Below are positions 7,013 through 48,004 of a DNA stretch of 64,000 bases, piece after piece (position 1 is the first letter of the stretch; each line of letters starts with the position of its first letter). The DNA comes from Candidatus Saccharimonadales bacterium. Lineage in GTDB: Bacteria; Patescibacteriota; Saccharimonadia; Saccharimonadales; UBA4665. Position numbers and translations under genes: made by a program. Location: NCBI GenBank assembly GCA_038239685.1, contig JBBSEN010000004.1:8657-72656 (forward strand), given 5' to 3'. Below the pieces are notes generated by a model. That model searched no databases and had not been told where the DNA came from. It saw only the letters and a list, made by a program, of their open reading frames with translations.

Positions 7013-8648
7013 TGCGATAAACGTCTAAGCCGCTGGCATGGCTGACTAGCTTCAAGTCACGCTGCCGCGATAAGAAGCCGTACTGGGAATAATCATAGCC
7101 ATGGGCTAGTAACACGTATTGGACGTGAATCCGCGCCAAAGTATGGCCCAGGTCGGTCCGGTCACTGCGGCCCAGCACCTGGCTTTCGACGAAGCGGCTG
7201 GTCGGTGTCGGTGTCGGGTCGTCAATGCCGCCGAACTGGGCGTTAGTGCCGGCAATTACCGATCCGTCAAAAAACGCCGGCGCCGGGTTGGCGATAATCC
7301 GCGGCGTGAAGTCGTAGCTCATATATTCGTGCCATGGCAGGAACAACAGTTTGCCGCTAGGCGGAGTAGCCTGCAATTGCCGGTTAAAGCTATACCAACT
7401 GGCCGGATACTGGACGGCCTTGAGCTGGTTAACGAAACCGAAGGGCATGGTGGCGGTATAGAAGACCGGCAGCAGCAGGGCGCCGTCGCGCAGCAGTTCC
7501 AACCGGCCAGTGGCGGCCGGCTTAACCCGGGCTAGTAGCCGGTCCAGGCCATGGGCGGCAAAGTAAACATAGGCTAGCGCCAGTAAGGCACTAAACTTCT
7601 CCGGTTCGCGGAAGCCGCGCATCAACGGCAGGTGCTCAATGCCCCAGCGCACCACCGGCCCGCTGACCGGCGCCTGGACGCCCAAGGCCACCACCAAGCC
7701 AATCAACCCGGCTAAGGCCAGGCTAACGGCCAGCAGCGACCGCGTCCGCCACCGCTCGCGACCGCCGATCACCACCAGCAACAAGATCAACAAGCCGCCA
7801 ACCAGCCAAACCAGCGGATTATGATTCGGCATAGCGTAGCGGCCATAGCGCTCTAGCCAGAAGCCGTACAGGCTGACCACATTGACGAACAGTCCGTGAT
7901 GCCCGGCAGTGCTAAAAGCACTGAGGTCACGACTGCCAATACCTCGAATTGTCTGACTGATTGGCGACGAGCCGCCAGCCACGCCAGCCAGCCAGTAGCT
8001 GTTCAGCACCACCACCCCCACAACGGCCAAGCCGCCGTAACGCCACATATTCCGGTAATAATTCCCCTTTGGCGATTGGGCGAACAAGTGGACGACGAAG
8101 ATGATTGCCCCAAGCAGGCTGCCGATGACCAGCATATGGACCGACACCAGGGCGATGGCGCAGTACCACCCGGCCACCCGCGCCGCCGTCCGCCGTCCCG
8201 GCCGGACACAGAAGCTCGCTAGGGCCGCCACCAAGAACGGCAGCAAGGCATAGCCTGCTAGCAACAGGTACTGCCCGGCCATCCAGCGCTCATAGGTGAA
8301 CGGATTAACGGTATAAAACAAACCGGCAAAGTAGCGCGGCAGCTCGGCCTTGGTCTGCATTAAGCGATACATACCAATGCCGCCTGTTAATAAGATAGCG
8401 AAGATCAGCAACTTCTCGACCACTTGCCCTGGCAGCACCAGGTTGACGACATGCAGCAACCAATGAAACAGATAACTATTAGATACAGCCGTCGGCGCCA
8501 CCAGCTTGGGCGTAAACACCATGTCCAAGGTCAGTACGAAACCAGGCCGTAGCATCGGCCCCATAATCACCAAGGCCAGCAGCGAAAACCACCCCACCTC
8601 CGGATGCCGCGCCACCACCCCGCCCAGCCGCTTACCTAGGCCCGACAT
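6993..8648 (-). CDS. Polytopic membrane protein, candidate GT-C-type glycosyltransferase
   Basis: About 11 hydrophobic helices over ~400 aa, then a ~130-aa soluble C-terminal domain. It sits between glycan genes. The assignment rests on architecture only. Confidence 0.5.
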   Translation of the reverse strand: MSGLGKRLGGVVARHPEVGWFSLLALVIMGPMLRPGFVLTLDMVFTPKLVAPTAVSNSYLFHWLLHVVNLVLPGQVVEKLLIFAILLTGGIGMYRLMQTKAELPRYFAGLFYTVNPFTYERWMAGQYLLLAGYALLPFLVAALASFCVRPGRRTAARVAGWYCAIALVSVHMLVIGSLLGAIIFVVHLFAQSPKGNYYRNMWRYGGLAVVGVVVLNSYWLAGVAGGSSPISQTIRGIGSRDLSAFSTAGHHGLFVNVVSLYGFWLERYGRYAMPNHNPLVWLVGGLLILLLVVIGGRERWRTRSLLAVSLALAGLIGLVVALGVQAPVSGPVVRWGIEHLPLMRGFREPEKFSALLALAYVYFAAHGLDRLLARVKPAATGRLELLRDGALLLPVFYTATMPFGFVNQLKAVQYPASWYSFNRQLQATPPSGKLLFLPWHEYMSYDFTPRIIANPAPAFFDGSVIAGTNAQFGGIDDPTPTPTSRFVESQVLGRSDRTDLGHTLARIHVQYVLLAHGYDYSQYGFLSRQRDLKLVSHASGLDVYRNEAYRG

Positions 8649-11600
8649 AACGCCATCCTTTGAAGTGCTTACTTTTTAGTACGTATTCGCCCCCTAGGTA
8701 GGCTATGCAGCCGATCAGCGTCAGGCCACTTATCGTAAGCCCGACATAGAAGTAACGTTCAGGTGTGAATTCCGCAGCCAGTTTAATATTGTAAGACCCA
8801 TCCTTATTCTTGTAGCAGGCATTCGATGTATGAGTGCACAGCATAACAGGGTCAACATACCAAGAATTCGCATAGCCATTGAGTTTAAGGTGATCTTTTT
8901 TGGGTACTGCTGTCGGATTGGTGTTAGGTAGCAATCCTTTTGCTCCACTCAGGCCTTTATCATTTAGCTCTAGTCTCCAGCCTGAGTTGTACGCCTCACT
9001 CATATTTAAATAGAAAGGAGTGTGGGCGCTTGTCACACTTATAAGTTTCTTGGTTGGACTAGGGCTTTGGAAGCTTATTTTTTCAGGCGTTTGAAGCACC
9101 TTATTATTGCTCTGAACAAGGTAATAATGACTCTCGATGTCCGGTACTTGCACAAGGCTAAAATTATCGTAACGATTAATTAATTGACGACCAGTTTGAC
9201 TATCCGGATATCCATAAACTGTGAGGTCTAATTTTGATGCACCATAAGGAATTTTCACTAATTTTTGAAAATGATGCCAGCCAGTACCGTCAATACTTAT
9301 TTGCTGGCTGACAGAACTATTTTGTGAATCGTTGAAGCCAAGGTGATAACCGGCTGACTGAGCATTCGGGCTCTGATAATCAAAGTCCAGTAAGTAGGTT
9401 TTACCTTCACTGACTCGCACGATACCGGGCCCGGTGCAAGCTATGTGCCTGGTAGTACGGAATTCAAGAGACTGCCGTCCATTTGTTTTCGTGGATTTCT
9501 CCAGCTCCATTTGTAAAACAGGATGATTATCGTAGTTATCACAATCCGATACATGGCGACTCCAAAGACCATTTTCTAATGAAGGATTTTTTATTAGGTT
9601 TTTACCCGTGTCTTTATCGTCAATGCTAAACTTGACTGGCTTTGTCGTATCTATTTGCTTCGGTACAAAATTCAAAGGGCGGCTGCTCGCAATATTTACG
9701 GGTATTTCTAAGGGTATAATTTGAACGTCATCATAATAAGTTTCAGCGTAGCCATTATTATCGTCATCGGGGTAACCTTTCAGCTGGAGAGTAAGGGTTG
9801 TAGCGCCTGGCGGAGCCTGGAAATAGGCAGAATGACCGTTCTCTCCAGAGCCATTCGGTAGTAAATCAGAACTAAGTGACGTGTGTTTACTATCATTAAA
9901 TAGTAGGTCGTACCCAACCCTTCTGCCATACTGTACTTTGAAATTTAATGACAAATTGTAGAATGAGCCTGGGGACATTCTCATATCATTAGAATTTGTA
10001 CATGCAGTATGGTTTCCAGCAAATAGGAGTAGGGATTGTCTCCCTGAGCTGGTAAAGTTTTTTGATACACCCATACTAATCTTCGGATTATCATCGTAGT
10101 TATTACAATCTTGAACCTTTGCCTGCCAAGGACCTTGCTCGAATGAGCCATTTTGAATCATATTCGGGCCATTTTCTTTAAACAGGTTAATAGAATCAGA
10201 TGTGTTACCGATATTTCTCGTAGCACCAGATTTATCGAGTGGATACGTATTATTACTTATTGAAAATAAATAACTGGATGACTTATCGAGTCTCAAAGAG
10301 CTAATAATAGTATTAGCAGGAAGGCCTGCTCCCCCGTCATTGGTAGAAAGATTATTCTGTGTTGTATTGCTAAATTGTAGCGTGCGACTTTTGACGAAAT
10401 AACTATATGAGGGAAAGTCATTGTCCGAATATAGTTCTGTGCGGGGGTAGCTTTTATTAGGCTGAGTGTGACTCACTAATTCACCATCTTGTGAGGGATA
10501 AATATTACTGAAAATATCGTTCACAATTTGTGCATTGTTGGCAGTGCTATCAGTAAAATCCAATGTTTTATTATTTAATTCCTGGCTTGTAAACTGAGCG
10601 TAGCTATTAATCTTAGTAATATCGGCTATCTCCGTTAATTTAGTGCTAGCTGAGATGTACGGACTGAAATCACGATTCTTGTACACGGCTAGCTGATCGC
10701 CGCCTACGTTAATCCTTTTCAGCCAGGATTGACGGTTTAATGAATTAATGAAGTAGCTCCGATTATTCCCATAGTATGGAAAAAAATCATCTTCATTGGC
10801 AGTATCACGTAAGGGCACAATGACGTACTTATAGTTTAAAGCCGTTAAATATTTAGGCGCTAAAGCTGAGGCGAAGTAGTTATTAGTCTGTAGGGCGAAT
10901 GGCTCTGATACAGAATCACTACTGCTCTGTGGCAAAATATCAGTGATAGAGCTCGCCGGTTTATTGTTAGTCGAATATGTCCACCTCGAAGTACTCGGTA
11001 GCCATAATGTCCTGAAGTGATCGGTGCTGTCCTTTTGCAAATAATTTTTTAGATATAGATACGAGCTGGGTATTTGGCGCTGGCTAAATAAGCTCTTAGG
11101 ATGCTCCAAGTAGAATGGAGTCACCATTAATACGATTAAAATGATAACCGCACCCGATAAAAACTTCAGTCCTTGTGGCCTTAAAGTCTTGTCGGATGAT
11201 TTTAGCTTTTGTCCCAAAAAAGTACCTATGACCACTGAGTAACCTAGCGAGATCAATATGTAAAACTTGCTAGCCTCTCTAAAGGCATTGAATCCGGGGA
11301 ACGTTGTGTAAAGCCAATAGTAGACTGAGCCAAATGGAGCCGCGTTCTCCTTACTTAAAAATATTCCTAGTAACGCAATTAATGAAAAACCAATAATATA
11401 ACTTTTACGACGCATACTGACTAGGGCCAATAGAAAGCAGCTAGGTAATAACCAGGCAAAAACAGGCGGCGTATGTATGGAGAACCACTCTATGCCATGA
11501 ATAGTCCAAAAGGAGTGCCACAGCGCAATAGAGTTTTCTAGCGGTAAATATTCAGATCCAAATAGACTTCTTGATAAGACAGCATTGCTTGTTAGTTGCC

Positions 11601-12366
11601 CCTGCGTTCCGATACCGAGCAGCCAATAGAAGCTGAGTAAACCGATAAGTACAAAAGCAATTAAGAGATATGCACAGCTTTTTAATTGCTTCCTAAACCC
11701 GTCTTCATTCAGTATCAAATAGATGAGTGTAAGTAAGGCTAAACCCAAGGAAGCAATGTAAAAGATTCGAAAGTCATAAATGCTCATGATCAATCCCGCC
11801 AAAGCCGTAATGACCGCTCGTCTTAAGCTTGGCTTTTCATAGAGTTTAATGGCGCATAACAGGAAAATTGGCGCGAATGCCATAGACCCTAAGATATTTA
11901 GATGTTGCGTATGCAGTATGAAAGTACAGGAATTAAATTGATAAATCATACTGCCGAAGAAAGCTGCTTTGTGAGATTTGGAAAAATGATATACCAGCAG
12001 ATAACTTCCAATACATGAAGCAATCACAATCGGCCACATATATATAAGACGCTCGAAGACCGCGAATCCAATATGCGCATGCGCGAATAGTCCTTCGATA
12101 AATTCAAGCGGATAGAATGAAGCAGTTATATTAGTAGAACCTAAACCGGCTGTATTCCACGCTTGCGGCAGATTAAAAAAGTGTCGAGCTACGCCAGTAT
12201 AGGTATAATTCCAATCACCATACGTAAGAATCCCAAAAGTGAAGAACCAGGTAGAATTAATAACTATACTTGCTACGACAGCACTGATAAACCAAGGGCT
12301 AGTAGTTTTCAATCTTTTCCGTATAGATAAGTGCATATCTTTCATTTTATAAGATGAAAGCGACAA
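8632..12366 (-). CDS. Giant (1244 aa) membrane protein: polytopic N-terminal domain (GT-C/AftD/YfhO-like), large extracytoplasmic region with two tandem CBM-like modules, and a C-terminal TM
   Basis: About 420 aa of TM helices come first. Duplicated ~155-aa modules occupy residues ~733-886 and ~921-1075 (NGSFEQGPWQAKVQDCNNYDDNP... versus NPSLENGLWSRHVSDCDNYDNHP...). The C-terminal TM is GLTISGLTLIGCIAYL. The composition is AT-rich. Confidence 0.75.
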   Translation of the reverse strand: MSLSSYKMKDMHLSIRKRLKTTSPWFISAVVASIVINSTWFFTFGILTYGDWNYTYTGVARHFFNLPQAWNTAGLGSTNITASFYPLEFIEGLFAHAHIGFAVFERLIYMWPIVIASCIGSYLLVYHFSKSHKAAFFGSMIYQFNSCTFILHTQHLNILGSMAFAPIFLLCAIKLYEKPSLRRAVITALAGLIMSIYDFRIFYIASLGLALLTLIYLILNEDGFRKQLKSCAYLLIAFVLIGLLSFYWLLGIGTQGQLTSNAVLSRSLFGSEYLPLENSIALWHSFWTIHGIEWFSIHTPPVFAWLLPSCFLLALVSMRRKSYIIGFSLIALLGIFLSKENAAPFGSVYYWLYTTFPGFNAFREASKFYILISLGYSVVIGTFLGQKLKSSDKTLRPQGLKFLSGAVIILIVLMVTPFYLEHPKSLFSQRQIPSSYLYLKNYLQKDSTDHFRTLWLPSTSRWTYSTNNKPASSITDILPQSSSDSVSEPFALQTNNYFASALAPKYLTALNYKYVIVPLRDTANEDDFFPYYGNNRSYFINSLNRQSWLKRINVGGDQLAVYKNRDFSPYISASTKLTEIADITKINSYAQFTSQELNNKTLDFTDSTANNAQIVNDIFSNIYPSQDGELVSHTQPNKSYPRTELYSDNDFPSYSYFVKSRTLQFSNTTQNNLSTNDGGAGLPANTIISSLRLDKSSSYLFSISNNTYPLDKSGATRNIGNTSDSINLFKENGPNMIQNGSFEQGPWQAKVQDCNNYDDNPKISMGVSKNFTSSGRQSLLLFAGNHTACTNSNDMRMSPGSFYNLSLNFKVQYGRRVGYDLLFNDSKHTSLSSDLLPNGSGENGHSAYFQAPPGATTLTLQLKGYPDDDNNGYAETYYDDVQIIPLEIPVNIASSRPLNFVPKQIDTTKPVKFSIDDKDTGKNLIKNPSLENGLWSRHVSDCDNYDNHPVLQMELEKSTKTNGRQSLEFRTTRHIACTGPGIVRVSEGKTYLLDFDYQSPNAQSAGYHLGFNDSQNSSVSQQISIDGTGWHHFQKLVKIPYGASKLDLTVYGYPDSQTGRQLINRYDNFSLVQVPDIESHYYLVQSNNKVLQTPEKISFQSPSPTKKLISVTSAHTPFYLNMSEAYNSGWRLELNDKGLSGAKGLLPNTNPTAVPKKDHLKLNGYANSWYVDPVMLCTHTSNACYKNKDGSYNIKLAAEFTPERYFYVGLTISGLTLIGCIAYLGGEYVLKSKHFKGWRYVGPR

Positions 12367-12376
12367 GACTCTAATA

Positions 12377-13543
12377 TTAAGAATAGTGTGACCTAGCTCG
12401 GAGCAAGTCGTTATAGAGGGCCAGCCACTTTTTTCTTACCAGTTTAGAGTCATGCTTTCTTTCAAATTCTTGCCTTGCGCCTGTCGATAGTTCTCTTAAT
12501 TTATTTCTGTCATTCATCAGGCTGGTTAGTATTTTCTTGAATGCTTCCCTATCGTTTCTCTTAATCATGTAACCAAAACCGTCATTGATAATTTGTTTTG
12601 CTCCGATGTTATTCGTCGTTATTATGGGCAGGCTCGAGGCCATTGCCTCAAGGTATACTTGTCCATAGCTTTCTTCTTGTTGCAGTAATGTAAAAACATG
12701 AGCGTCTTTGTACACTTTAGGCAGATCACTATTTTTGATAAAACCTTTTAAGAACACGTTTTTTTCAACTCCAAGGTTAGATATGAGAATCTGCAACTTA
12801 CTCATTTCAGGACCGTCACCATATATATTCAATACTGCTTTCGGATTTGCTTTGACTGTTTCGGCGAATACCCGTATTAAATAATCGAATCTTTTTCTCG
12901 GTATAAGGTAACCTACTGCTACTAGCTTAAATGGCTCGCTAAAGTAATCCTTAGCACTTGATAGCTTAAATCTATTTCCATCTACTCCTGGAGCGATTAA
13001 CTTAATCTTTTCTTGGTCGACATATGGAGAGACTAGTTTTTTTGTAACCATATCATAAACCACGACGCAGTCAGCCTTTGCCAGCGTCCTATGAGAAAGA
13101 GGTGAGATTATTTTTTGTAGTGTTCGGGGAAACAAAGGCAGCTTTTCATTATTGTACGGCACGGAAAAACTACCAATAATAAATATCTTGTTTCGGGTTA
13201 GATTTAATAGAGCTAGTAGATTGAAAGTTGCTCCTAATTTAAAAGGCCTGACATGATGGACAACGTCAAAATCTTCTCGCATTAATAGTTTTATTGATTT
13301 GAGCGAATAACGAATGGTAAATAATATTGCAGCTAAAGCACCCATTTCGTAAACAGTTTTTTTGGGCTGTGCTTCAATGACACGATAAGGTAGATTCATT
13401 TTTTCAGTGATTTTTCCAGTTACTACTACAGATTCTGGCCAGTTACGCGCGACTGAATCAGCTATTTCAAAAGCATGTCTATACTCAGAACCGCGCAATT
13501 GTGATTCGTATACGTAATGGCTGGGAGCAAGTAAAGCTTTCAT
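12377..13543 (-). CDS. Family 4 (GT-B) glycosyltransferase
   Basis: EESYGQVYLEAMASSLPIITTNNIG (EX7E region) within a typical ~390-aa GT4 layout. Confidence 0.8.
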   Translation of the reverse strand: MKALLAPSHYVYESQLRGSEYRHAFEIADSVARNWPESVVVTGKITEKMNLPYRVIEAQPKKTVYEMGALAAILFTIRYSLKSIKLLMREDFDVVHHVRPFKLGATFNLLALLNLTRNKIFIIGSFSVPYNNEKLPLFPRTLQKIISPLSHRTLAKADCVVVYDMVTKKLVSPYVDQEKIKLIAPGVDGNRFKLSSAKDYFSEPFKLVAVGYLIPRKRFDYLIRVFAETVKANPKAVLNIYGDGPEMSKLQILISNLGVEKNVFLKGFIKNSDLPKVYKDAHVFTLLQQEESYGQVYLEAMASSLPIITTNNIGAKQIINDGFGYMIKRNDREAFKKILTSLMNDRNKLRELSTGARQEFERKHDSKLVRKKWLALYNDLLRARSHYS

Positions 13544-13545
13544 AT

Positions 13546-14226
13546 TTATATATTAAGGCAATTATTAGATCTGTAAAAAATGGTGGTAACAGACATGACA
13601 GGTATTATTGGTGCCATGCCATGAAGATCTAGGCGTTTAAAGCCGGCATTAGTAAGTGAAGTTATGCCCTTGGTGTAGCGTTTTCGATCAGTATTATCCC
13701 AAACAATCACACCTCTTTTCGATAATGCTTCGACAGCGTATTTTGCGCAATTAACCCTATCGCGTCCGTCTACAACGATTATGTCGAACTTAAGTTTTGA
13801 CCTAGTCGAAGCTGTGGAATAATCACCATTCTTATTTAATGCTATGTATCGTATTATTACGTTTCTCGGTAACCCGTTCTTTACTTTTTGATACCAATTT
13901 TTATTGTGTTCGCAACTATAAACTTTTGAAACATGCTTTGCCCACCACAGGGTGCTGTTACCTGAACCATACTCAAAGACTTTCATTTTCTTATTTACCC
14001 TAGTCTCTAATAGGGATATCGCCGGATATGTGATCCATGGCACTGGAGAGTTTTTGCGATCAATTGACGTGTTGTGGAGCACGCTCTTAAACCAGCCGAG
14101 CTCATACAAAGCATGACTGCCTGTTATTAGTGACCAAACCATCCAGCAAAAATTAGTTAAGCCGATTTTATCAAGTGTGTTTTTTATTAAGCTCATCGAT
14201 CTACCGGTTATTAGACCTTTTACCAC
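13546..14226 (-). CDS. Putative class I SAM-dependent methyltransferase-like protein
   Basis: VFEYGSGNSTLWWA resembles SAM motif I (ExGxGxS), followed by IIVVDGRDR. Alternative start at 14196 (MSLIKNT...). The assignment is tentative. Confidence 0.45.
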   Translation of the reverse strand: MVKGLITGRSMSLIKNTLDKIGLTNFCWMVWSLITGSHALYELGWFKSVLHNTSIDRKNSPVPWITYPAISLLETRVNKKMKVFEYGSGNSTLWWAKHVSKVYSCEHNKNWYQKVKNGLPRNVIIRYIALNKNGDYSTASTRSKLKFDIIVVDGRDRVNCAKYAVEALSKRGVIVWDNTDRKRYTKGITSLTNAGFKRLDLHGMAPIIPVMSVTTIFYRSNNCLNI

Positions 14227-20092: not shown

Positions 20093-20488
20093 TCAAACGT
20101 TATTGGCTGGCGTCGGATTGAGCTCTTTAACGTTTTGCGGCGGCATTATGTGCTTGCGCACCACGCAGTATTCCGGCTCTTTAGCGATGACGTCTTCGAT
20201 ACTATCGACCTCGTGGCCGCAGATAATCGCGAAAGCGTTCGGATCCCGATGGATTTTGTTGTAGTCTTTAGGACTAAGAAAGATACGGAGACGACAATTC
20301 TCGTCGGAACATTCGCAGGAAAAATTTAAACCTAGGTCGGCGTTGAACTCCTTCGGCAGCTCGCCTTCCGAGGCCGCGACTTGCTTAAACTGCTCTTGCC
20401 ACTTCAAAAAATTTTGGTTAAACGTGCGGAAGACAACCTGGTTCTCGGCCATTCGCCGCTCGGATGGTGTCTCAGCCGCCCTTTTCAT
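20093..20488 (-). CDS. Hypothetical Cys-containing protein (131 aa)
   Basis: I prefer the ATG at 20488 (MKRAAETPSERR...), which avoids overlap with the upstream RSH gene. It contains CECSDENC and ICGH. No family recognised. Confidence 0.5.
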   Translation of the reverse strand: MKRAAETPSERRMAENQVVFRTFNQNFLKWQEQFKQVAASEGELPKEFNADLGLNFSCECSDENCRLRIFLSPKDYNKIHRDPNAFAIICGHEVDSIEDVIAKEPEYCVVRKHIMPPQNVKELNPTPANNV

Positions 20489-20528
20489 AATCTCATAATA
20501 GCATGTTAAGTAGCTTAACCTGCGAATT

Positions 20529-22985
20529 CTAGGCCTGCGCCTGGTAGCCAAAATGCTTGGCGTACTGCCAGATTAGCTTATGGACGCGGGCGTAGACGTC
20601 GGATAATTCGGGCGAAGTGAAGTCTTCGGATAGGTGCTGGTCAGTTTTCGCGAAGTATTCCATAATTTTTTGCCAATCAGCCGAGCCTTGCGGCGCTTGG
20701 CCGGTGGCCAGTTTTATCAGATCAGTAATGTGGTTTTGCCACCGGTCAGCCGGCTTTACCAGCCGGGCGTATTCGTTATCTTGTATCTGTATAGAGTACT
20801 GTTCACGCCGGGCGTATTCGTCTTCGACCTCGAACGGATAGGTCATGGCATTGACACCGTCCATAACGGCAGACCCAAATTTTTGTTTAATTTCAAACAG
20901 CATCTCTTGGCGTTTGGCTAGTTTGGTTGCCTGGTCACCAATGCCTTCCAGGGCATTCTCAACGTGGTCATGCAGTATAGCGGTGGCGGCGATGTTGGCG
21001 GCGTATTGGTTGGGGCCGAGTCCTTCGTCATCCCAGACTTTGCCGCTCTGGGTGGCCAGCATGACTGCCGCTAAGGCTGTTGGCAGTATGTGCCCTTCCA
21101 AGACTGAGGTTACGCCGTCGTCTCTCATAGTATTTGCTTCGGATTCTTTAACCAGCTGCAAGGCGTTCAATATATTTTTGTCGGTGGCCAGGTCGCGGCC
21201 AAACATGCTGAGGGCATCTATGAATTGCTCTTCGCTTAGCTTGGCTGCCGGCAGAACCGCTAGGTTGCCGGAGTCGCCTAAGGCTTCCGCCAGCATCTGT
21301 GGCGCCAGCTTAGCCAATTCTTTGGGTACCAGTGTCCGGGTTCCTTTCTGGCCGTCGACGGCCCGGAATAATTTGTTAAACACAAACGGAATGTGCGGTG
21401 AGACGGCCAACATTTCGGCGATTGACTGGATGGTCGTGCCTGGCCCGATCTCGCGCTCGGCCCTGGCCCGCTCGGCCAAGTGGTTGAGGTGTTGCTGGTC
21501 ATAATCTGTATATTTACCCCTAGCCTTATAAAACAAGTCGCTCGACCTACCATACATTTTCATCCAATGCTGCCTTTGGGTTAGGACTTGGATTTCAAAT
21601 GGAACAGCATCAGGATAGTCTAACGAGCCGGGCTCGGGGTAGTAATAGAAAGTCATGTGGATGGCCTCATAGCCGCTCTTACGTCTCCTAGCGCCTTGCA
21701 TATCATCAAAAGCCGGCTCCCCCGCAGGGTGCTTGTCCTGAATTCTAGCTGGATCAGCGGTCAGGCGTTTCATGAATTGCTCGGCAAAATGGGTCATCTC
21801 GGCGCCGGCCATTTTATTAGGAACAATAAATGCCATGCCAACTCCGTCCGGTGTTAGATGGATTCCTTCATACTTCGGTTGGGCTAGCTTTTCACGCAGT
21901 GAGCCTTCGCTTTTGACACGGGCTTCAGATTCGACTTCGATACCGCTGAACTCTGTTTCCCGCAGCTTGGTAACTATTTCCTGTATGTCATCACGGTGCC
22001 GATGGGATAGGTCATGCTGTCGCTTAGCGTGACCATTAGGATCATCATATAACCACTCTAGGGCAGCGCCTCGCAAATCGATCGCCAACTTCTTATAGCC
22101 CAGCGCCATCAGGGCTGGCACAAAGAAGTTGAGCGCCTCGATGCAATCGCGGAAGGTCGAAGCCGGATTATTGGGCGGCGGGTTCTCGATAAGGTCTTTA
22201 GTTTCCAAGCCTTTGAAGAAGACGCCTTTAATATTATGGTTAAGGGTGCTGACACTGATCGAACGGAGCTTTAGTTCGACCATTTTACGGCCTTTAGTTT
22301 TTAACACCTGTTCCAGCTCGGCTTTGTCAAAGTTATCTAGTTCAGGTGTTTTGTAGACCGACGCTGTTAGCATTTTGCTTTCCCTTTCGTTGATCTCACC
22401 TTTTTTGAGCATTTCGCCAATTTTGTCCGCTCCCCCGTCTCGCCAAATCCGGGCGGCTGACTCCCACTTGGAGGAGTCTATAGCAAACAAATAGGCTTTG
22501 ATCAGGGCATCAGGGTCGGCGACGGCTTTTATCTCTTCTTGGTTGTCGTCTGTACCGCCTTCCAGCAATTCACTCAATCTGGCAAGGGCGTCAGCTTTTA
22601 TTTCGGCGGCTGGTTCACTGCTAGGACTTAATTTGACAGCTGTCTTTTCGGGATTTAAGATTGCATGCTCCACGAAGTCGCCCATCACAATCGTCATTCT
22701 GTCGATATGGCTGGTAGCCGGATCGCTTTTGGCGTCATCATCAGCCTCGGCGTAGTCTCTATAATAGGCCAGCATTCGGTTGTTGTGCTGGCTATGCCGG
22801 GCAGTACCATAAAGTTCGGTCATAAATTCTTCGATATTTTCGCCGACGATGTCGTAGTCATCCGGCATAAATTCCGAAGCGATGGCCAAGGCGGCCATTT
22901 CTGCGGCCGCGTCATAAGCGCCCTCATCATCGTGGGGGGCGTAATATATGCTATTTTCAAAGCCGCTAACCGGACCGTGCTTCAT
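20529..22985 (-). CDS. RelA/SpoT homologue with unusual domain order: unknown N-terminal region, then a (p)ppGpp-synthetase-like domain, then a SpoT-type HD hydrolase domain
   Basis: The synthetase motifs are ARVKSEGSLREKL...PDGVGMAFIV and KSGYEAIHMTFYYY...PFEIQVLTQRQHWM (residues ~355-475). The HD motifs are GHILPTALA, AILHDHVEN and KPADRWQNHITDL (residues ~630-755). Confidence 0.7.
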   Translation of the reverse strand: MKHGPVSGFENSIYYAPHDDEGAYDAAAEMAALAIASEFMPDDYDIVGENIEEFMTELYGTARHSQHNNRMLAYYRDYAEADDDAKSDPATSHIDRMTIVMGDFVEHAILNPEKTAVKLSPSSEPAAEIKADALARLSELLEGGTDDNQEEIKAVADPDALIKAYLFAIDSSKWESAARIWRDGGADKIGEMLKKGEINERESKMLTASVYKTPELDNFDKAELEQVLKTKGRKMVELKLRSISVSTLNHNIKGVFFKGLETKDLIENPPPNNPASTFRDCIEALNFFVPALMALGYKKLAIDLRGAALEWLYDDPNGHAKRQHDLSHRHRDDIQEIVTKLRETEFSGIEVESEARVKSEGSLREKLAQPKYEGIHLTPDGVGMAFIVPNKMAGAEMTHFAEQFMKRLTADPARIQDKHPAGEPAFDDMQGARRRKSGYEAIHMTFYYYPEPGSLDYPDAVPFEIQVLTQRQHWMKMYGRSSDLFYKARGKYTDYDQQHLNHLAERARAEREIGPGTTIQSIAEMLAVSPHIPFVFNKLFRAVDGQKGTRTLVPKELAKLAPQMLAEALGDSGNLAVLPAAKLSEEQFIDALSMFGRDLATDKNILNALQLVKESEANTMRDDGVTSVLEGHILPTALAAVMLATQSGKVWDDEGLGPNQYAANIAATAILHDHVENALEGIGDQATKLAKRQEMLFEIKQKFGSAVMDGVNAMTYPFEVEDEYARREQYSIQIQDNEYARLVKPADRWQNHITDLIKLATGQAPQGSADWQKIMEYFAKTDQHLSEDFTSPELSDVYARVHKLIWQYAKHFGYQAQA

Positions 22986-23084
22986 CAGGTGATAATAACA
23001 TAAAAACGGTATATTGACAATGTACTTAGGGTTGGCTAGTTATGGGGTGATTAGGCTCGGTACATTGACCGGCACTGAAGGGCA

Positions 23085-45964: not shown

Positions 45965-46029
45965 TGTACTAAGTCCTCACTACTTACTAATTTAAGTAAT
46001 GTTAATACTTAAAGTTGCATTTGACAAGT

Positions 46030-46065
46030 CTTGGCTCCCCCAGTGGACGAGCTTCGAAACTTTAG
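46030..46065. repeat. Copy 3 of a ~36-nt intergenic motif
   Basis: cttggctcccccagtggacgagcttcgaaactttag. It overlaps the TAA stop of the 46062..46385 gene. Confidence 0.55.
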
Positions 46066-46385
46066 CGGGTCAATCGAGCGGCCACAGCGAATTGCATGAA
46101 GTAGCGATCCAGGCTTTGAATGGCTTGTTGTGAGGCATTACTATCGTTCACAATAGCCAAGAACTGTTCTTTGGAGCGAGCTACTTCCTTTGCTTTTGGT
46201 GATTTTGCTTTAGTTTGAGCTGAGATAGTAGCGTCAAAAAGTTCTAAGGCTCGGGCGATCGCCAGATTATTTGGATCAGCCTGATGTTTAAACGACCTAC
46301 CAACTTCACTATATATATTGCCCATCTGATTAAATATATCTAACTTTGCCCACCGGTCTTTGTCGATTGTATAGTTGTCACTCAT
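46062..46385 (-). CDS. Hypothetical protein (107 aa)
   Basis: An ORF translationally coupled to the upstream gene (4-nt overlap). AT-rich composition. Confidence 0.5.
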   Translation of the reverse strand: MSDNYTIDKDRWAKLDIFNQMGNIYSEVGRSFKHQADPNNLAIARALELFDATISAQTKAKSPKAKEVARSKEQFLAIVNDSNASQQAIQSLDRYFMQFAVAARLTR

Positions 46386-46741
46386 GCTGTAACTTTCTGT
46401 GCTACCAGGCTAATAATACTCTGTTGAATGGTCTCGTCTTCTACACTTCTTGACATGTTTTGCTGTCGTGGGCGAATGTTAATCATCGAATCAAATTCAA
46501 CGAATTCATCTGTGCCAAATTTGGCGGGGTATAAGTTTATGCCCCATAAATCAGATTGTTTTGAGCCCTGCTCTAATAAATATGCCTCTTCATCGGCGTG
46601 CATTTCCGCATCAATTACCATACTATTTTGTGCCAAATCAACCACGGCTTTCACTAGATTGCCATACATATTTTCAGCCATTGCTTGCAGCTCAGAAACA
46701 GTGATTATATCTACGACTTTCATTACAGTTAAGTATATCAA
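46382..46741 (-). CDS. Hypothetical protein (possibly DUF5674-like)
   Basis: The tracked start is a TTG. An ATG at 46723 (MKVVDIITVSELQ...) sits 8 nt after a TATACT box and is the more likely start. Confidence 0.5.
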   Translation of the reverse strand: MIYLTVMKVVDIITVSELQAMAENMYGNLVKAVVDLAQNSMVIDAEMHADEEAYLLEQGSKQSDLWGINLYPAKFGTDEFVEFDSMINIRPRQQNMSRSVEDETIQQSIISLVAQKVTA

Positions 46742-46770
46742 AACAAAAAGACTTCAGATGAAGTCTTTTA
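46741..46770 (-). terminator. Putative intrinsic terminator (minus-strand orientation)
   Basis: A 6-bp stem gacttc/gaagtc (46750-46755 and 46760-46765) with a 4-nt loop. On the minus strand it is followed by TTTTTGTTTT. The stem is weak. Confidence 0.35.
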
Positions 46771-46782
46771 CGCATTAGTATC

Positions 46783-46810
46783 TTGGCTCCGGGGACTGGA
46801 TTCGAACCAG
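46783..46810. repeat. 28-bp duplicate of the 3' end of tRNA-Asn (att-like)
   Basis: ttggctccggggactggattcgaaccag is identical to 47930..47957, the 3' acceptor strand plus part of the T-arm of the tRNA-Asn gene. Confidence 0.85.
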
Positions 46811-46902
46811 GTATTTGTGCCACCTAAATTTTAGGCCCGCTTACTTTAGCTTACCTCTGTAAAATGTCAAAATTATTAATAATAATGTGTTATAATGGGA
46901 GT

Positions 46903-47079
46903 ATGAATAAAGCAATCTCCAAACGGACAAAAATTGTAAAGCGAGCCGTCGCAAATGAGCGACTTGAAGGCTTAAGAGTATCTAAAGATTCACGCAAAAT
47001 CGCAGATAACTACATAACCGGCAAGGCATCCGCCAAACAAGCAGCCAATAAAATACGAGCGCGCTACGGAGTTTTGTAG
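46903..47079 (+). CDS. VbhA-like antitoxin of the Fic toxin
   Basis: A 58-aa protein MNKAISKRTKIVKRAVANERLEGL... with an ERLEG motif resembling the (S/T)xxxE(G/N) Fic-inhibitory helix. GGGAG lies upstream of the ATG at 46903. Its stop overlaps the fic start. Confidence 0.6.
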   Translation: MNKAISKRTKIVKRAVANERLEGLRVSKDSRKIADNYITGKASAKQAANKIRARYGVL

Positions 47080-47681
47080 TGGACGATTTCGTCGATCCGT
47101 ATTTCGACGAATCCATAAGCGACCTACGAAACTTATTAGGAGCAAAGTCATCTGAAGAATTGCGTAAGCTGGAACCCCAGATAGTCTTTGCTAACGAGCT
47201 TGAACTTGAGTCAATACATATACCACGCACGAATGATTTGAATGAACTACTGCATATTCATGCGCAGTTGTTTAAGGACGTTTATGATTGGGCTGGCCAG
47301 ATCCGCACGGTAGATATAAAAAAGAACGATGATAGTGCAGAATATTTCCTGATTGTAAGCAAAATAGCCGATGCATCAAACTATGTATTCGGAGAACTTG
47401 CAAAGCAGGATAATCTTAAGGCCTTATTGGTCGACGAGTTTATTGAGAGGCTTGCTTACTTCTATGATCAGCTCAACTATATTCATCCGTTTCGCGAAGG
47501 AAATGGAAGAGCACAGCGTATTTTTTGGACTAGGGTTGCACATGGTGCAGGTTATGAAATTAATTGGGACGAAATTGTCGGCGATGAAAATGACGAAGCA
47601 TCAAGGCTTGCAGCCGAAAAACTTGACCTATCAGCACTAAGAGAAATGTTTACAAAAATAGTAAAACCGCTACAGAAGTAG
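47079..47681 (+). CDS. fic: Fic/DOC family protein (AMPylase-type toxin)
   Basis: Canonical Fic motif HPFREGNGRAQR (HxFx[D/E]GNGRxxR). 200 aa, GTG start. Confidence 0.85.
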   Translation: MDDFVDPYFDESISDLRNLLGAKSSEELRKLEPQIVFANELELESIHIPRTNDLNELLHIHAQLFKDVYDWAGQIRTVDIKKNDDSAEYFLIVSKIADASNYVFGELAKQDNLKALLVDEFIERLAYFYDQLNYIHPFREGNGRAQRIFWTRVAHGAGYEINWDEIVGDENDEASRLAAEKLDLSALREMFTKIVKPLQK

Positions 47682-47929
47682 AGTGGCCGGTCACGGAACC
47701 CGGTCGGCTTTCACGCTGCTTGGTTGCCTCAGTGATGACTGGTTAGTTCCAGAACCAAATAACAGAGACAAACAAATTTTCTGAGGTCTCTTTTCTGGTT
47801 CCAACAAACACATAACGTAATTCAAATTTAGAGAAACTGGACTCGAACTGGCTAACAGATAAGAAGTTGTTTGACAAAAATAAGAAAACCAGGTCTAGGA
47901 ATCCGGTCTACCTCTGTTGGTGCTTGGTT

Positions 47930-48004
47930 TGGCTCCGGGGACTGGATTCGAACCAGCGACCTAGGCGTTAACAGCGCCCCGCTCTACCGCTGAGCTACCC
48001 CGGA
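47930..48004 (-). tRNA. tRNA-Asn (anticodon GTT), CCA encoded
   Basis: Hand-folded cloverleaf: acceptor UCCGGGG/CCCCGGA, D arm GCUC-AGCGGUA-GAGC, anticodon arm GGGCG-CUGUUAA-CGCCU, variable loop AGGUC, T arm GCUGG-UUCGAAU-CCAGU, discriminator G, CCA. Confidence 0.9.

Follow-up and report, generated by a model that had tools for sequence, protein, structure and literature searches.

Long RelA/SpoT homologs (RSHs) couple the synthesis and hydrolysis of alarmones by a fixed arrangement of an HD hydrolase domain and a synthetase (SYN) domain, HD-SYN, and are steered by ribosome-binding C-terminal domains. RSH classifications recognize long RSHs, small alarmone synthetases (SASs), as well as small alarmone hydrolases (SAHs) (PMC3153485; PMC7229694); we found no mention in these two classifications of a SYN-then-HD order or of an architecture with two HD domains, nor did we find such an architecture described in the literature on alarmones of Saccharibacteria and the candidate phyla radiation (CPR) or on synthetase-hydrolase fusions. 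Here we analyze an 818-amino acid (aa) RSH encoded in a 64-kb stretch of DNA (the window) from a Candidatus Saccharimonadales genome (GenBank assembly GCA_038239685.1, contig JBBSEN010000004.1, positions 8,657 to 72,656), to which an earlier note had drawn attention because the synthetase motifs seemed to precede those of the HD domain. We consider it probable that this protein is a divergent alarmone enzyme derived from long RSHs, in which a degenerate HD domain, a helix bundle, the synthetase, an alpha/beta linker and an intact RSH-type HD domain follow one another.

Results

Domain structure of the 818-aa protein

The open reading frame (ORF) encoding this protein, 818 codons plus stop, lies on the minus strand of the window in a 914-kb genome of five contigs, estimated to be 100% complete and found in soil and biocrust samples. 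A comparison of the single sequence with databases gave few leads, as the sole matches from Pfam, NCBIfam, PADLOC and PHROGs were a sub-threshold RelA_SpoT domain and a weak PHROG match to "metal-dependent phosphohydrolase", and a phmmer search of the PDB yielded nothing useful. The PDB search therefore required a family profile, which we built from 46 sequences (homologs at 21-58% identity); the residue counts given below as x/46 come from the same alignment. For alignments with hhalign, the reference was a set of ten canonical Saccharimonadia Rel proteins from the genomes of relatives. The AlphaFold2 (AF2) model of the protein had a predicted local distance difference test score (pLDDT) of 85 and a predicted template modeling score (pTM) of 0.84, and a Foldseek search with this model returned RelA, the N-terminal domain (NTD) of Rel, SpoT, SASs and SAHs. 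The parts of the protein, with the evidence for each, are as follows.

20529..22985, minus strand: the whole ORF, a divergent RelA/SpoT homolog, [hd]-SYN-linker-HD (ORF list, 25 homologs, AF2 model)
22872..22985, minus strand: acidic tail, residues 1-38, poorly conserved and predicted to be disordered (pLDDT below 50, gappy alignment, isoelectric point (pI) 4.2)
22242..22868, minus strand: all-helical N-terminal domain, residues 40-248, probably a degenerate HD (H67, G102-D103; about 90 aa of extra helices)
21951..22241, minus strand: last HD helix and central helix bundle, residues 249-345 (hhalign, HMMER profile, conservation of E261)
21486..21950, minus strand: RelA/SpoT synthetase (nucleotide pyrophosphokinase) domain, residues 346-500, catalytic motifs intact (PF04607, conservation, Foldseek, PDB profile)
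21177..21485, minus strand: conserved alpha/beta linker, residues 501-603 (conservation, secondary structure)
20532..21176, minus strand: SpoT/Rel-type HD (alarmone 3'-pyrophosphohydrolase) domain, residues 604-818 (hhalign, conservation, the relative P0035, Foldseek, PDB profile)

The HMMER check with Pfam RelA_SpoT (PF04607) that the earlier note had proposed did find the synthetase, with scores on either side of the cut-off of 27 bits: hmmscan placed the domain at residues 356-490 with 24.8 bits, and a six-frame search of the genome gave 28.4 bits for the same protein, while relatives scored 30-44 bits. The synthetase motifs RxKxxxSxxxK, DxxG, GY..H and ExQ are all present (R356, K358, S362, K366, D380, G383, Y439, H443, E464 and Q466); K358, D380 and E464 are invariant in 46/46 sequences, and at least 44/46 sequences keep R356, K366, Y439 and Q466. 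An acidic AFDD motif, which may resemble the EXDD motif of RelA, occupies the place of RXKD in Rel. Every motif quoted in the earlier note occurs in the translation at codons that agree with its coordinates, namely ARVKSEGSLREKL, DGVGMAFIV, KSGYEAIHMTFYYY and FEIQVLTQRQHWM, then H632, AILHDHVEN and KPADRWQNHITDL (R356 is encoded by nucleotides (nt) 21918-21920, E464 by 21594-21596, H632 by 21090-21092 and D747 by 20745-20747).

In the PDB search with the family profile, long RSHs came out on top (RelSeq, 1.3e-23; Thermus Rel, 1.6e-23), followed by S. aureus Rel, M. tuberculosis Rel and RelA, and in each of these top long RSHs a SYN stretch as well as an HD stretch was matched. Over the SYN stretch the long RSHs scored 55-62 bits, compared to 28-31 bits for SASs, and CapRel was the weakest RSH match of the search (18.8 bits, compared to 86 bits for Rel). 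The synthetase part of the model was matched in Foldseek by RelQ and RelP with template modeling (TM) scores of 0.57-0.61. In its sequence, the synthetase is nearer to those of long RSHs than to SASs or CapRel.

Downstream of the synthetase, hhalign aligned residues 604-754 with residues 21-150 of the Rel HD domain (probability 98.4%, E 4.8e-15), which together with the RelA_SpoT match confirmed that the synthetase precedes the HD domain. The assignment of this region to the SpoT/Rel-type HD held in the hhalign comparison and failed in Pfam, where neither an HD match (HD_4, PF13328) in the 818-aa protein nor an HD_4 match in its genome was obtained. In a full-length relative (P0035, 33% identical), by comparison, RelA_SpoT (42 bits), HD_4 (45 bits) and HD were found in that order, all with scores exceeding the Pfam cut-offs. 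The catalytic residues R621, H632, H672-D673, E676, K744, D747, R748, N751 and D755 are present, of which R621, H632, H672, E676 and D755 are invariant in 46/46 sequences and at least 43/46 keep D673, K744, D747, R748 and N751. At the second position of the ED pair, this protein has N677 and 22/46 sequences have Asp. When the family profile was compared with the PDB over this domain, SpoT scored 50 bits, Mesh1 43.5 bits and the HD domains of Rel 27-30 bits, and in Foldseek PaSAH and Mesh1, both SAHs, matched it with TM scores of 0.66-0.71. By these comparisons, both catalytic domains, the synthetase as well as the C-terminal HD, share homology with their counterparts in Rel, RelA and SpoT. Moreover, the conservation of their active-site residues in a family with only 21-58% overall identity indicates that both catalytic centers are under selection.

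The regulatory half of long RSHs has no counterpart that we could detect. As the earlier note had surmised, there is no TGS/ACT-like tail: Pfam found neither TGS nor ACT in the 818-aa protein or in ten relatives, and hhalign found no match in the family profile to the region of Rel past residue 381. The linker between the two catalytic domains, in which R506, P554, L557, P579 and F588 are nearly invariant, was considered as a possible TGS remnant, but hhalign did not detect one, and residues 501-603 matched neither the TGS region of Rel nor any PDB sequence. Thus, as judged from these domain searches, the ribosome- and tRNA-sensing C-terminal region (TGS, ACT) is missing.

The region ahead of the synthetase

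The N-terminal 345 aa are acidic (pI 4.9), as the earlier note had said of the roughly 330 aa preceding the synthetase; its description of them as wholly unknown has to be revised, since residues 249-345 align with Rel. In the hhalign comparison, residues 249-512 aligned with residues 131-381 of Rel (probability 98.3%, E 2.2e-14), such that residues 249-345 corresponded to Rel 131-235, that is, to the "KLADRLHN" helix and the central helix bundle, and the alignment continued unbroken into the synthetase. Within this stretch, HNIxGLFxKxxExxDNI was aligned with DVRVIIIKLADRLHNL of Rel, which forms the last of the HD domain's conserved helices, with K258, E261 and D264 corresponding to KLADRLHN. 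Likewise, the HMMER profile over this region matched Thermus Rel from residue 153 and RelSeq from residue 162. Because the match begins well upstream of the synthetase, residues 249-345 are, on the evidence of the alignment, of the long-RSH type.

This result bears directly on the view of the earlier note that the protein is a fused SAS and SAH. A plain fusion of this kind, placed behind an unrelated novel N-terminal domain, would account for the SYN-then-HD order, which is real, for the C-terminal HD scoring as well with the single-domain Mesh1 as with the HD domains of Rel, and for residues 40-248, whose homology to HD is not significant taken alone. We nevertheless think it unlikely: the last HD helix and the helix bundle of long RSHs are contiguous with the synthetase, the SYN stretch scored about twice as high with long RSHs as with SASs, and the H...HD...E motifs of the N-terminal domain are collinear with those of the Rel HD, with about 90% of members retaining them. 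Furthermore, the synthetase is not a single domain as in a SAS, but has conserved domains on both sides in a chain of 818 aa.

The identity of the domain that precedes residue 249 is less plain. In hhalign, residues 63-113 were collinear with residues 43-82 of Rel, the H...HD part, with a weak probability of 1-5%; in this alignment H67 fell on the His of "HPL", and "LHDFVDH" on "LHDTVEDT" of Rel. The corresponding residues are well conserved (H67 and H102 in 41/46 each, D103 in 42/46), and E261, which occupies the position of the metal-binding Asp, is kept in 45/46. Shorter relatives have the pattern "R.dG....H..RI..(about 25 aa)..HD", which resembles "R.SGEPYI.HPL.VA" of the canonical Rel HD. 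An AF2 model of residues 26-347 alone had a pLDDT of 87, and its top Foldseek matches were the NTD of Thermus Rel, B. subtilis Rel and an SAH, at E of at least 0.34 and TM scores of 0.2-0.3. Pfam searches of N-terminal fragments found HD_4 in 1/19 (E 0.11), and the N-terminal profile had no match among PDB sequences. Taking these together, we think it quite likely that residues 40-260 form a degenerate HD domain, in which helices amounting to about 90 aa are inserted and the catalytic ED pair is missing, and the sequence architecture is best written [hd]-SYN-linker-HD.

Where the HD doublet has its His, the 818-aa protein, alone among the 46 sequences, has Gly (G102). This unusual codon is also present in a Logan contig from a soil metagenome, which is identical to the local sequence and has 13.9x word depth. 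Since the His of the doublet is replaced, the N-terminal domain of this protein is very probably not a working metal-dependent hydrolase. A recent internal duplication giving rise to the N-terminal domain and the C-terminal HD was also considered and was not borne out, as hhalign aligned between them just a 10-22 residue "LHD.V" stretch (probability up to 19%).

Family and distribution

We found 25 full-length homologs with 42-57% identity, in all of which (25/25) the start is aligned with M1. When 1.84 billion cluster representatives were searched exhaustively, 70 clusters matched, among which are relatives of 744-817 aa with 21-35% identity and the same layout. Close relatives occur in 6/185,579 species genomes and any relative in 4/301 genomes of the class Saccharimonadia, and all homologs with a source name are from Candidatus Saccharimonadales or Saccharibacteria. 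Other relatives, of 550-660 aa (P0066-P0086; L038, G283, a 590-aa frame), have the N-terminal domain and the synthetase and no C-terminal HD.

Each carrier genome (8/8) has just one RelA_SpoT match, namely the family member, and no canonical Rel, and the complete genome of the window has one RelA_SpoT match. Canonical Rel is found in 177/301 genomes of the class (RelA_SpoT E about 1e-35 to 1e-40); it was not found in the taxonomic family to which the window belongs, where just 4 of about 24 genomes have any RelA_SpoT match. The sole-RSH status of this gene and the absence of Rel from its family fit a previous remark that one soil Saccharibacterium is seemingly unable to make (p)ppGpp and that most others are able to (PMC6031116).

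In the course of this survey, we noted several further RelA_SpoT proteins. The canonical Rel frames in one large family of Saccharimonadales (f2, L010-L019) are about 480-580 aa, compared to about 720-750 aa in the other families of the class, and many Saccharibacteria Rel proteins therefore seem to stop short of the distal portion of the C-terminal regulatory region. One Saccharimonadales genome (G269) encodes canonical Rel and, separately, a 552-aa frame (L009) that weakly matches residues 248-308. Other non-canonical RelA_SpoT matches, with E of 1e-16 to 1e-26, are frames of 365 aa (L036, G197), 284 aa (L037, G295) and 616 aa (L035, G265), which may be SAS-like or truncated RSHs.

Genomic neighborhood

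The RSH gene has a secretory-lipase gene on one side and, on the other, a polysaccharide biosynthesis cluster (flippase and glycosyltransferases), and a cyclopropane-fatty-acid synthase gene lies near it. The neighbors of homologs differed at every locus examined (ABC transporter, two-component systems, ATP synthase operon, SmpB, rRNA methyltransferase). Here and in the window the neighbors look like housekeeping or envelope genes, and at these loci we found no conserved partner gene, mobile element or defense island. Two features lie next to the RSH gene.

22992..23020, minus strand: putative promoter-like site TTGTCA-17-(TG)TTATTAT (10/12 consensus matches; consensus match only)
20093..20488, minus strand: 131-aa five-Cys protein (CxCx4C...C...C), starting 40 nt downstream of the RSH gene (ORF list)

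The 131-aa Cys-containing ORF is present on the same strand at the distance given in the earlier note, which had proposed to look for it beside other homologs. It proved not to be conserved there: in the genomes examined, no homolog of the 131-aa protein lies beside any other member of the RSH family. Its own family occurs in 30/301 genomes of the class, often in several copies and independently of the RSH; the genome of the window has a second copy (G000:C1:60180-60527), and in another genome (G227) the family member is on a different contig from the RSH. The protein had no match in Pfam, NCBIfam or PADLOC. The 131-aa gene is not part of the RSH system, and a toxin-antitoxin pairing of the two genes was rejected, since the gene is not adjacent to RSH homologs elsewhere and its family occurs independently.

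The promoter-like site of the RSH gene ends 6 nt before the ATG, and the 131-aa gene has its own TGCTATTAT-N6-ATG arrangement. In both genes (RSH, 22985-23020; 131-aa gene, 20488-20515; minus strand), an extended -10-like TGnTATTAT thus ends 6 nt ahead of the ATG; upstream of neither is there a Shine-Dalgarno sequence. This combination suggests that the two genes may be expressed as leaderless transcripts from separate promoters.

Elsewhere in the window, a segment at about 8600-14000 has a G+C content of 38-40%, compared to about 55% in other parts. In it are a 1244-aa ORF, which weakly matches a carbohydrate-binding module, and a GT1 glycosyltransferase gene, within a long minus-strand polysaccharide cluster. 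It may represent a surface-glycan segment that was acquired horizontally or is hypervariable. A second segment of low G+C content (42%) is at about 46000-48000.

The distribution and neighborhood also bear on a second explanation, in which the protein is a conflict or toxin-like RSH, with a toxic SAS (toxSAS)-type synthetase that would make (p)ppApp or pyrophosphorylate the CCA end of tRNA, and a C-terminal HD that would act as an antitoxin in cis or as a reset. Hydrolases of the SAH type are known to serve as antitoxins of toxSASs (PMC7229694), and there are RSHs in which toxin and antitoxin are fused (CapRel; PDB 7ztb was among the matches); the family is patchy and rare in its distribution, and Foldseek comparisons with viral proteins gave weak matches to phage RelA/SpoT and Tas1-like proteins. 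These viral matches were just generic phage RSH and HD matches, however, and PADLOC matched neither the 818-aa nor the 131-aa protein. Moreover, CapRel scored far below Rel, the neighbors vary and include no defense island, the synthetase is preceded by a region of the long-RSH type, and no carrier genome encodes Rel or any RSH other than this one. We regard this explanation as distinctly unlikely, and these results do not favor the analogy with toxSAS and CapRel that the earlier note had offered.

Discussion

The 818-aa protein is most likely, from its domain content, a self-contained bifunctional alarmone synthetase/hydrolase without ribosome sensing. If so, the central domain would transfer pyrophosphate from ATP onto the 3'-OH of GDP or GTP to yield (p)ppGpp, and the C-terminal HD would remove the pyrophosphate of (p)ppGpp in a Mn2+-dependent reaction, such that a single polypeptide both sets and resets the alarmone level. 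Control would then be intramolecular or ligand-dependent, rather than exerted through the ribosome or tRNA. As the first His of the HD pair is missing in this protein, the N-terminal HD-like domain may serve mainly as a scaffold or regulatory module, by analogy with the inactive HD of RelA. In most members, although not in the protein of the window, the N-terminal H/HD/E site is intact, and if these sites function, two different hydrolase sites could surround one synthetase.

Such a protein could have evolved from a Rel-like catalytic half whose HD domain lost the catalytic Glu-Asp (ED) pair, with hydrolase activity regained through a second, C-terminal HD; the relatives of 550-660 aa may show the state without the added HD. 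We tentatively suggest, as a possibility that falls somewhat short of even chances, that the family is a so far unclassified subfamily of RSHs (written [hSH] after Atkinson et al.), in which a decayed N-terminal HD has been replaced by a C-terminal HD and the ribosome-sensing tail discarded, and which as a ribosome-independent, self-resetting switch takes the place of Rel in some soil Saccharibacteria.

Several points weigh against reading the protein as a long-RSH-derived alarmone enzyme. The assignment of the N-terminal domain to HD lacks statistical significance, and the sub-cut-off RelA_SpoT score, together with the lack of a Pfam HD match, marks a highly divergent protein. Two second-shell residues of the synthetase differ, with A385 where Rel and distant relatives have Arg, and L468 in place of the Arg of "QIRT" in Rel. 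Substrate and product are predictions from homology. Finally, most genomes of the same taxonomic family are without any RSH and only 4/301 genomes of the class have a relative, so that the family is dispensable and could serve an accessory role.

Saccharibacteria are epibionts with no nucleotide synthesis of their own. We find it improbable, and the poorest of the explanations considered, that the protein is mainly a hydrolase or scavenging enzyme, with an inactive synthetase or one that uses another acceptor, and with one or both HDs degrading alarmones or host-derived phosphorylated nucleotides; although the HD motifs are its most strictly conserved part, many members may have two metal sites given an N-terminal H/HD/E set in about 90% of relatives, and one Saccharibacteria genome is predicted to depend on scavenged nucleotides (PMC6031116), the invariant K358, D380 and E464 and the nearly invariant Y439 and Q466 argue for a working pyrophosphokinase.

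If the protein is instead the alarmone enzyme that we propose, its significance lies with RSH specialists and with CPR physiology rather than being general, as the family is very small and known from sequence. Some soil Saccharibacteria lineages have been reported to be unable to make (p)ppGpp (PMC6031116). Since annotation at the level of Pfam misses or under-scores this family, some of these lineages may have an unrecognized alarmone enzyme. The 818-aa enzyme would also provide a natural test of how far the coupling of synthesis and hydrolysis depends on domain order, and of alternative ways of controlling alarmones.

Among the described systems, toxSAS and CapRel share with this protein the RSH synthetase fold and the idea of a neutralizing module, be it an SAH or a fused C-terminal domain; in contrast to them, it has no conserved bicistronic partner or defense context, its match to them in sequence is very weak, and its C-terminus is an HD domain where CapRel has a pseudo-zinc-finger antitoxin domain. 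Mesh1, PaSAH, RelQ and RelP are single-domain folds that match the respective parts of the model, but these are stand-alone proteins of about 180-230 aa, whereas here the domains lie within one 818-aa chain whose sequence is nearer to long RSHs. RelA, which is monofunctional with an inactive pseudo-HD, likewise has a degenerate HD-like domain ahead of an apparently active synthetase, and aligned with the family from residue 143 through SYN; unlike the 818-aa protein, it has no second HD, and its activation requires the C-terminal domains and the ribosome.

The closest comparison is with the long RSH Rel (RelSeq, 1VJ7; Thermus Rel, 6S2T; Saccharimonadia Rel). The 818-aa protein is without the TGS, helical, zinc-finger and ACT/RRM regions of Rel, and in the place of the N-terminal HD it has a divergent domain that lacks the ED pair and contains extra helices of about 90 aa. 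The synthetase, the helix bundle and the last HD helix are homologous in the two, as is an HD hydrolase with identical catalytic residues. Thus, both activities, as read here from the sequence, would reside in one chain in either case, with the intact hydrolase N-terminal to the synthetase in Rel and C-terminal to it in the 818-aa protein.

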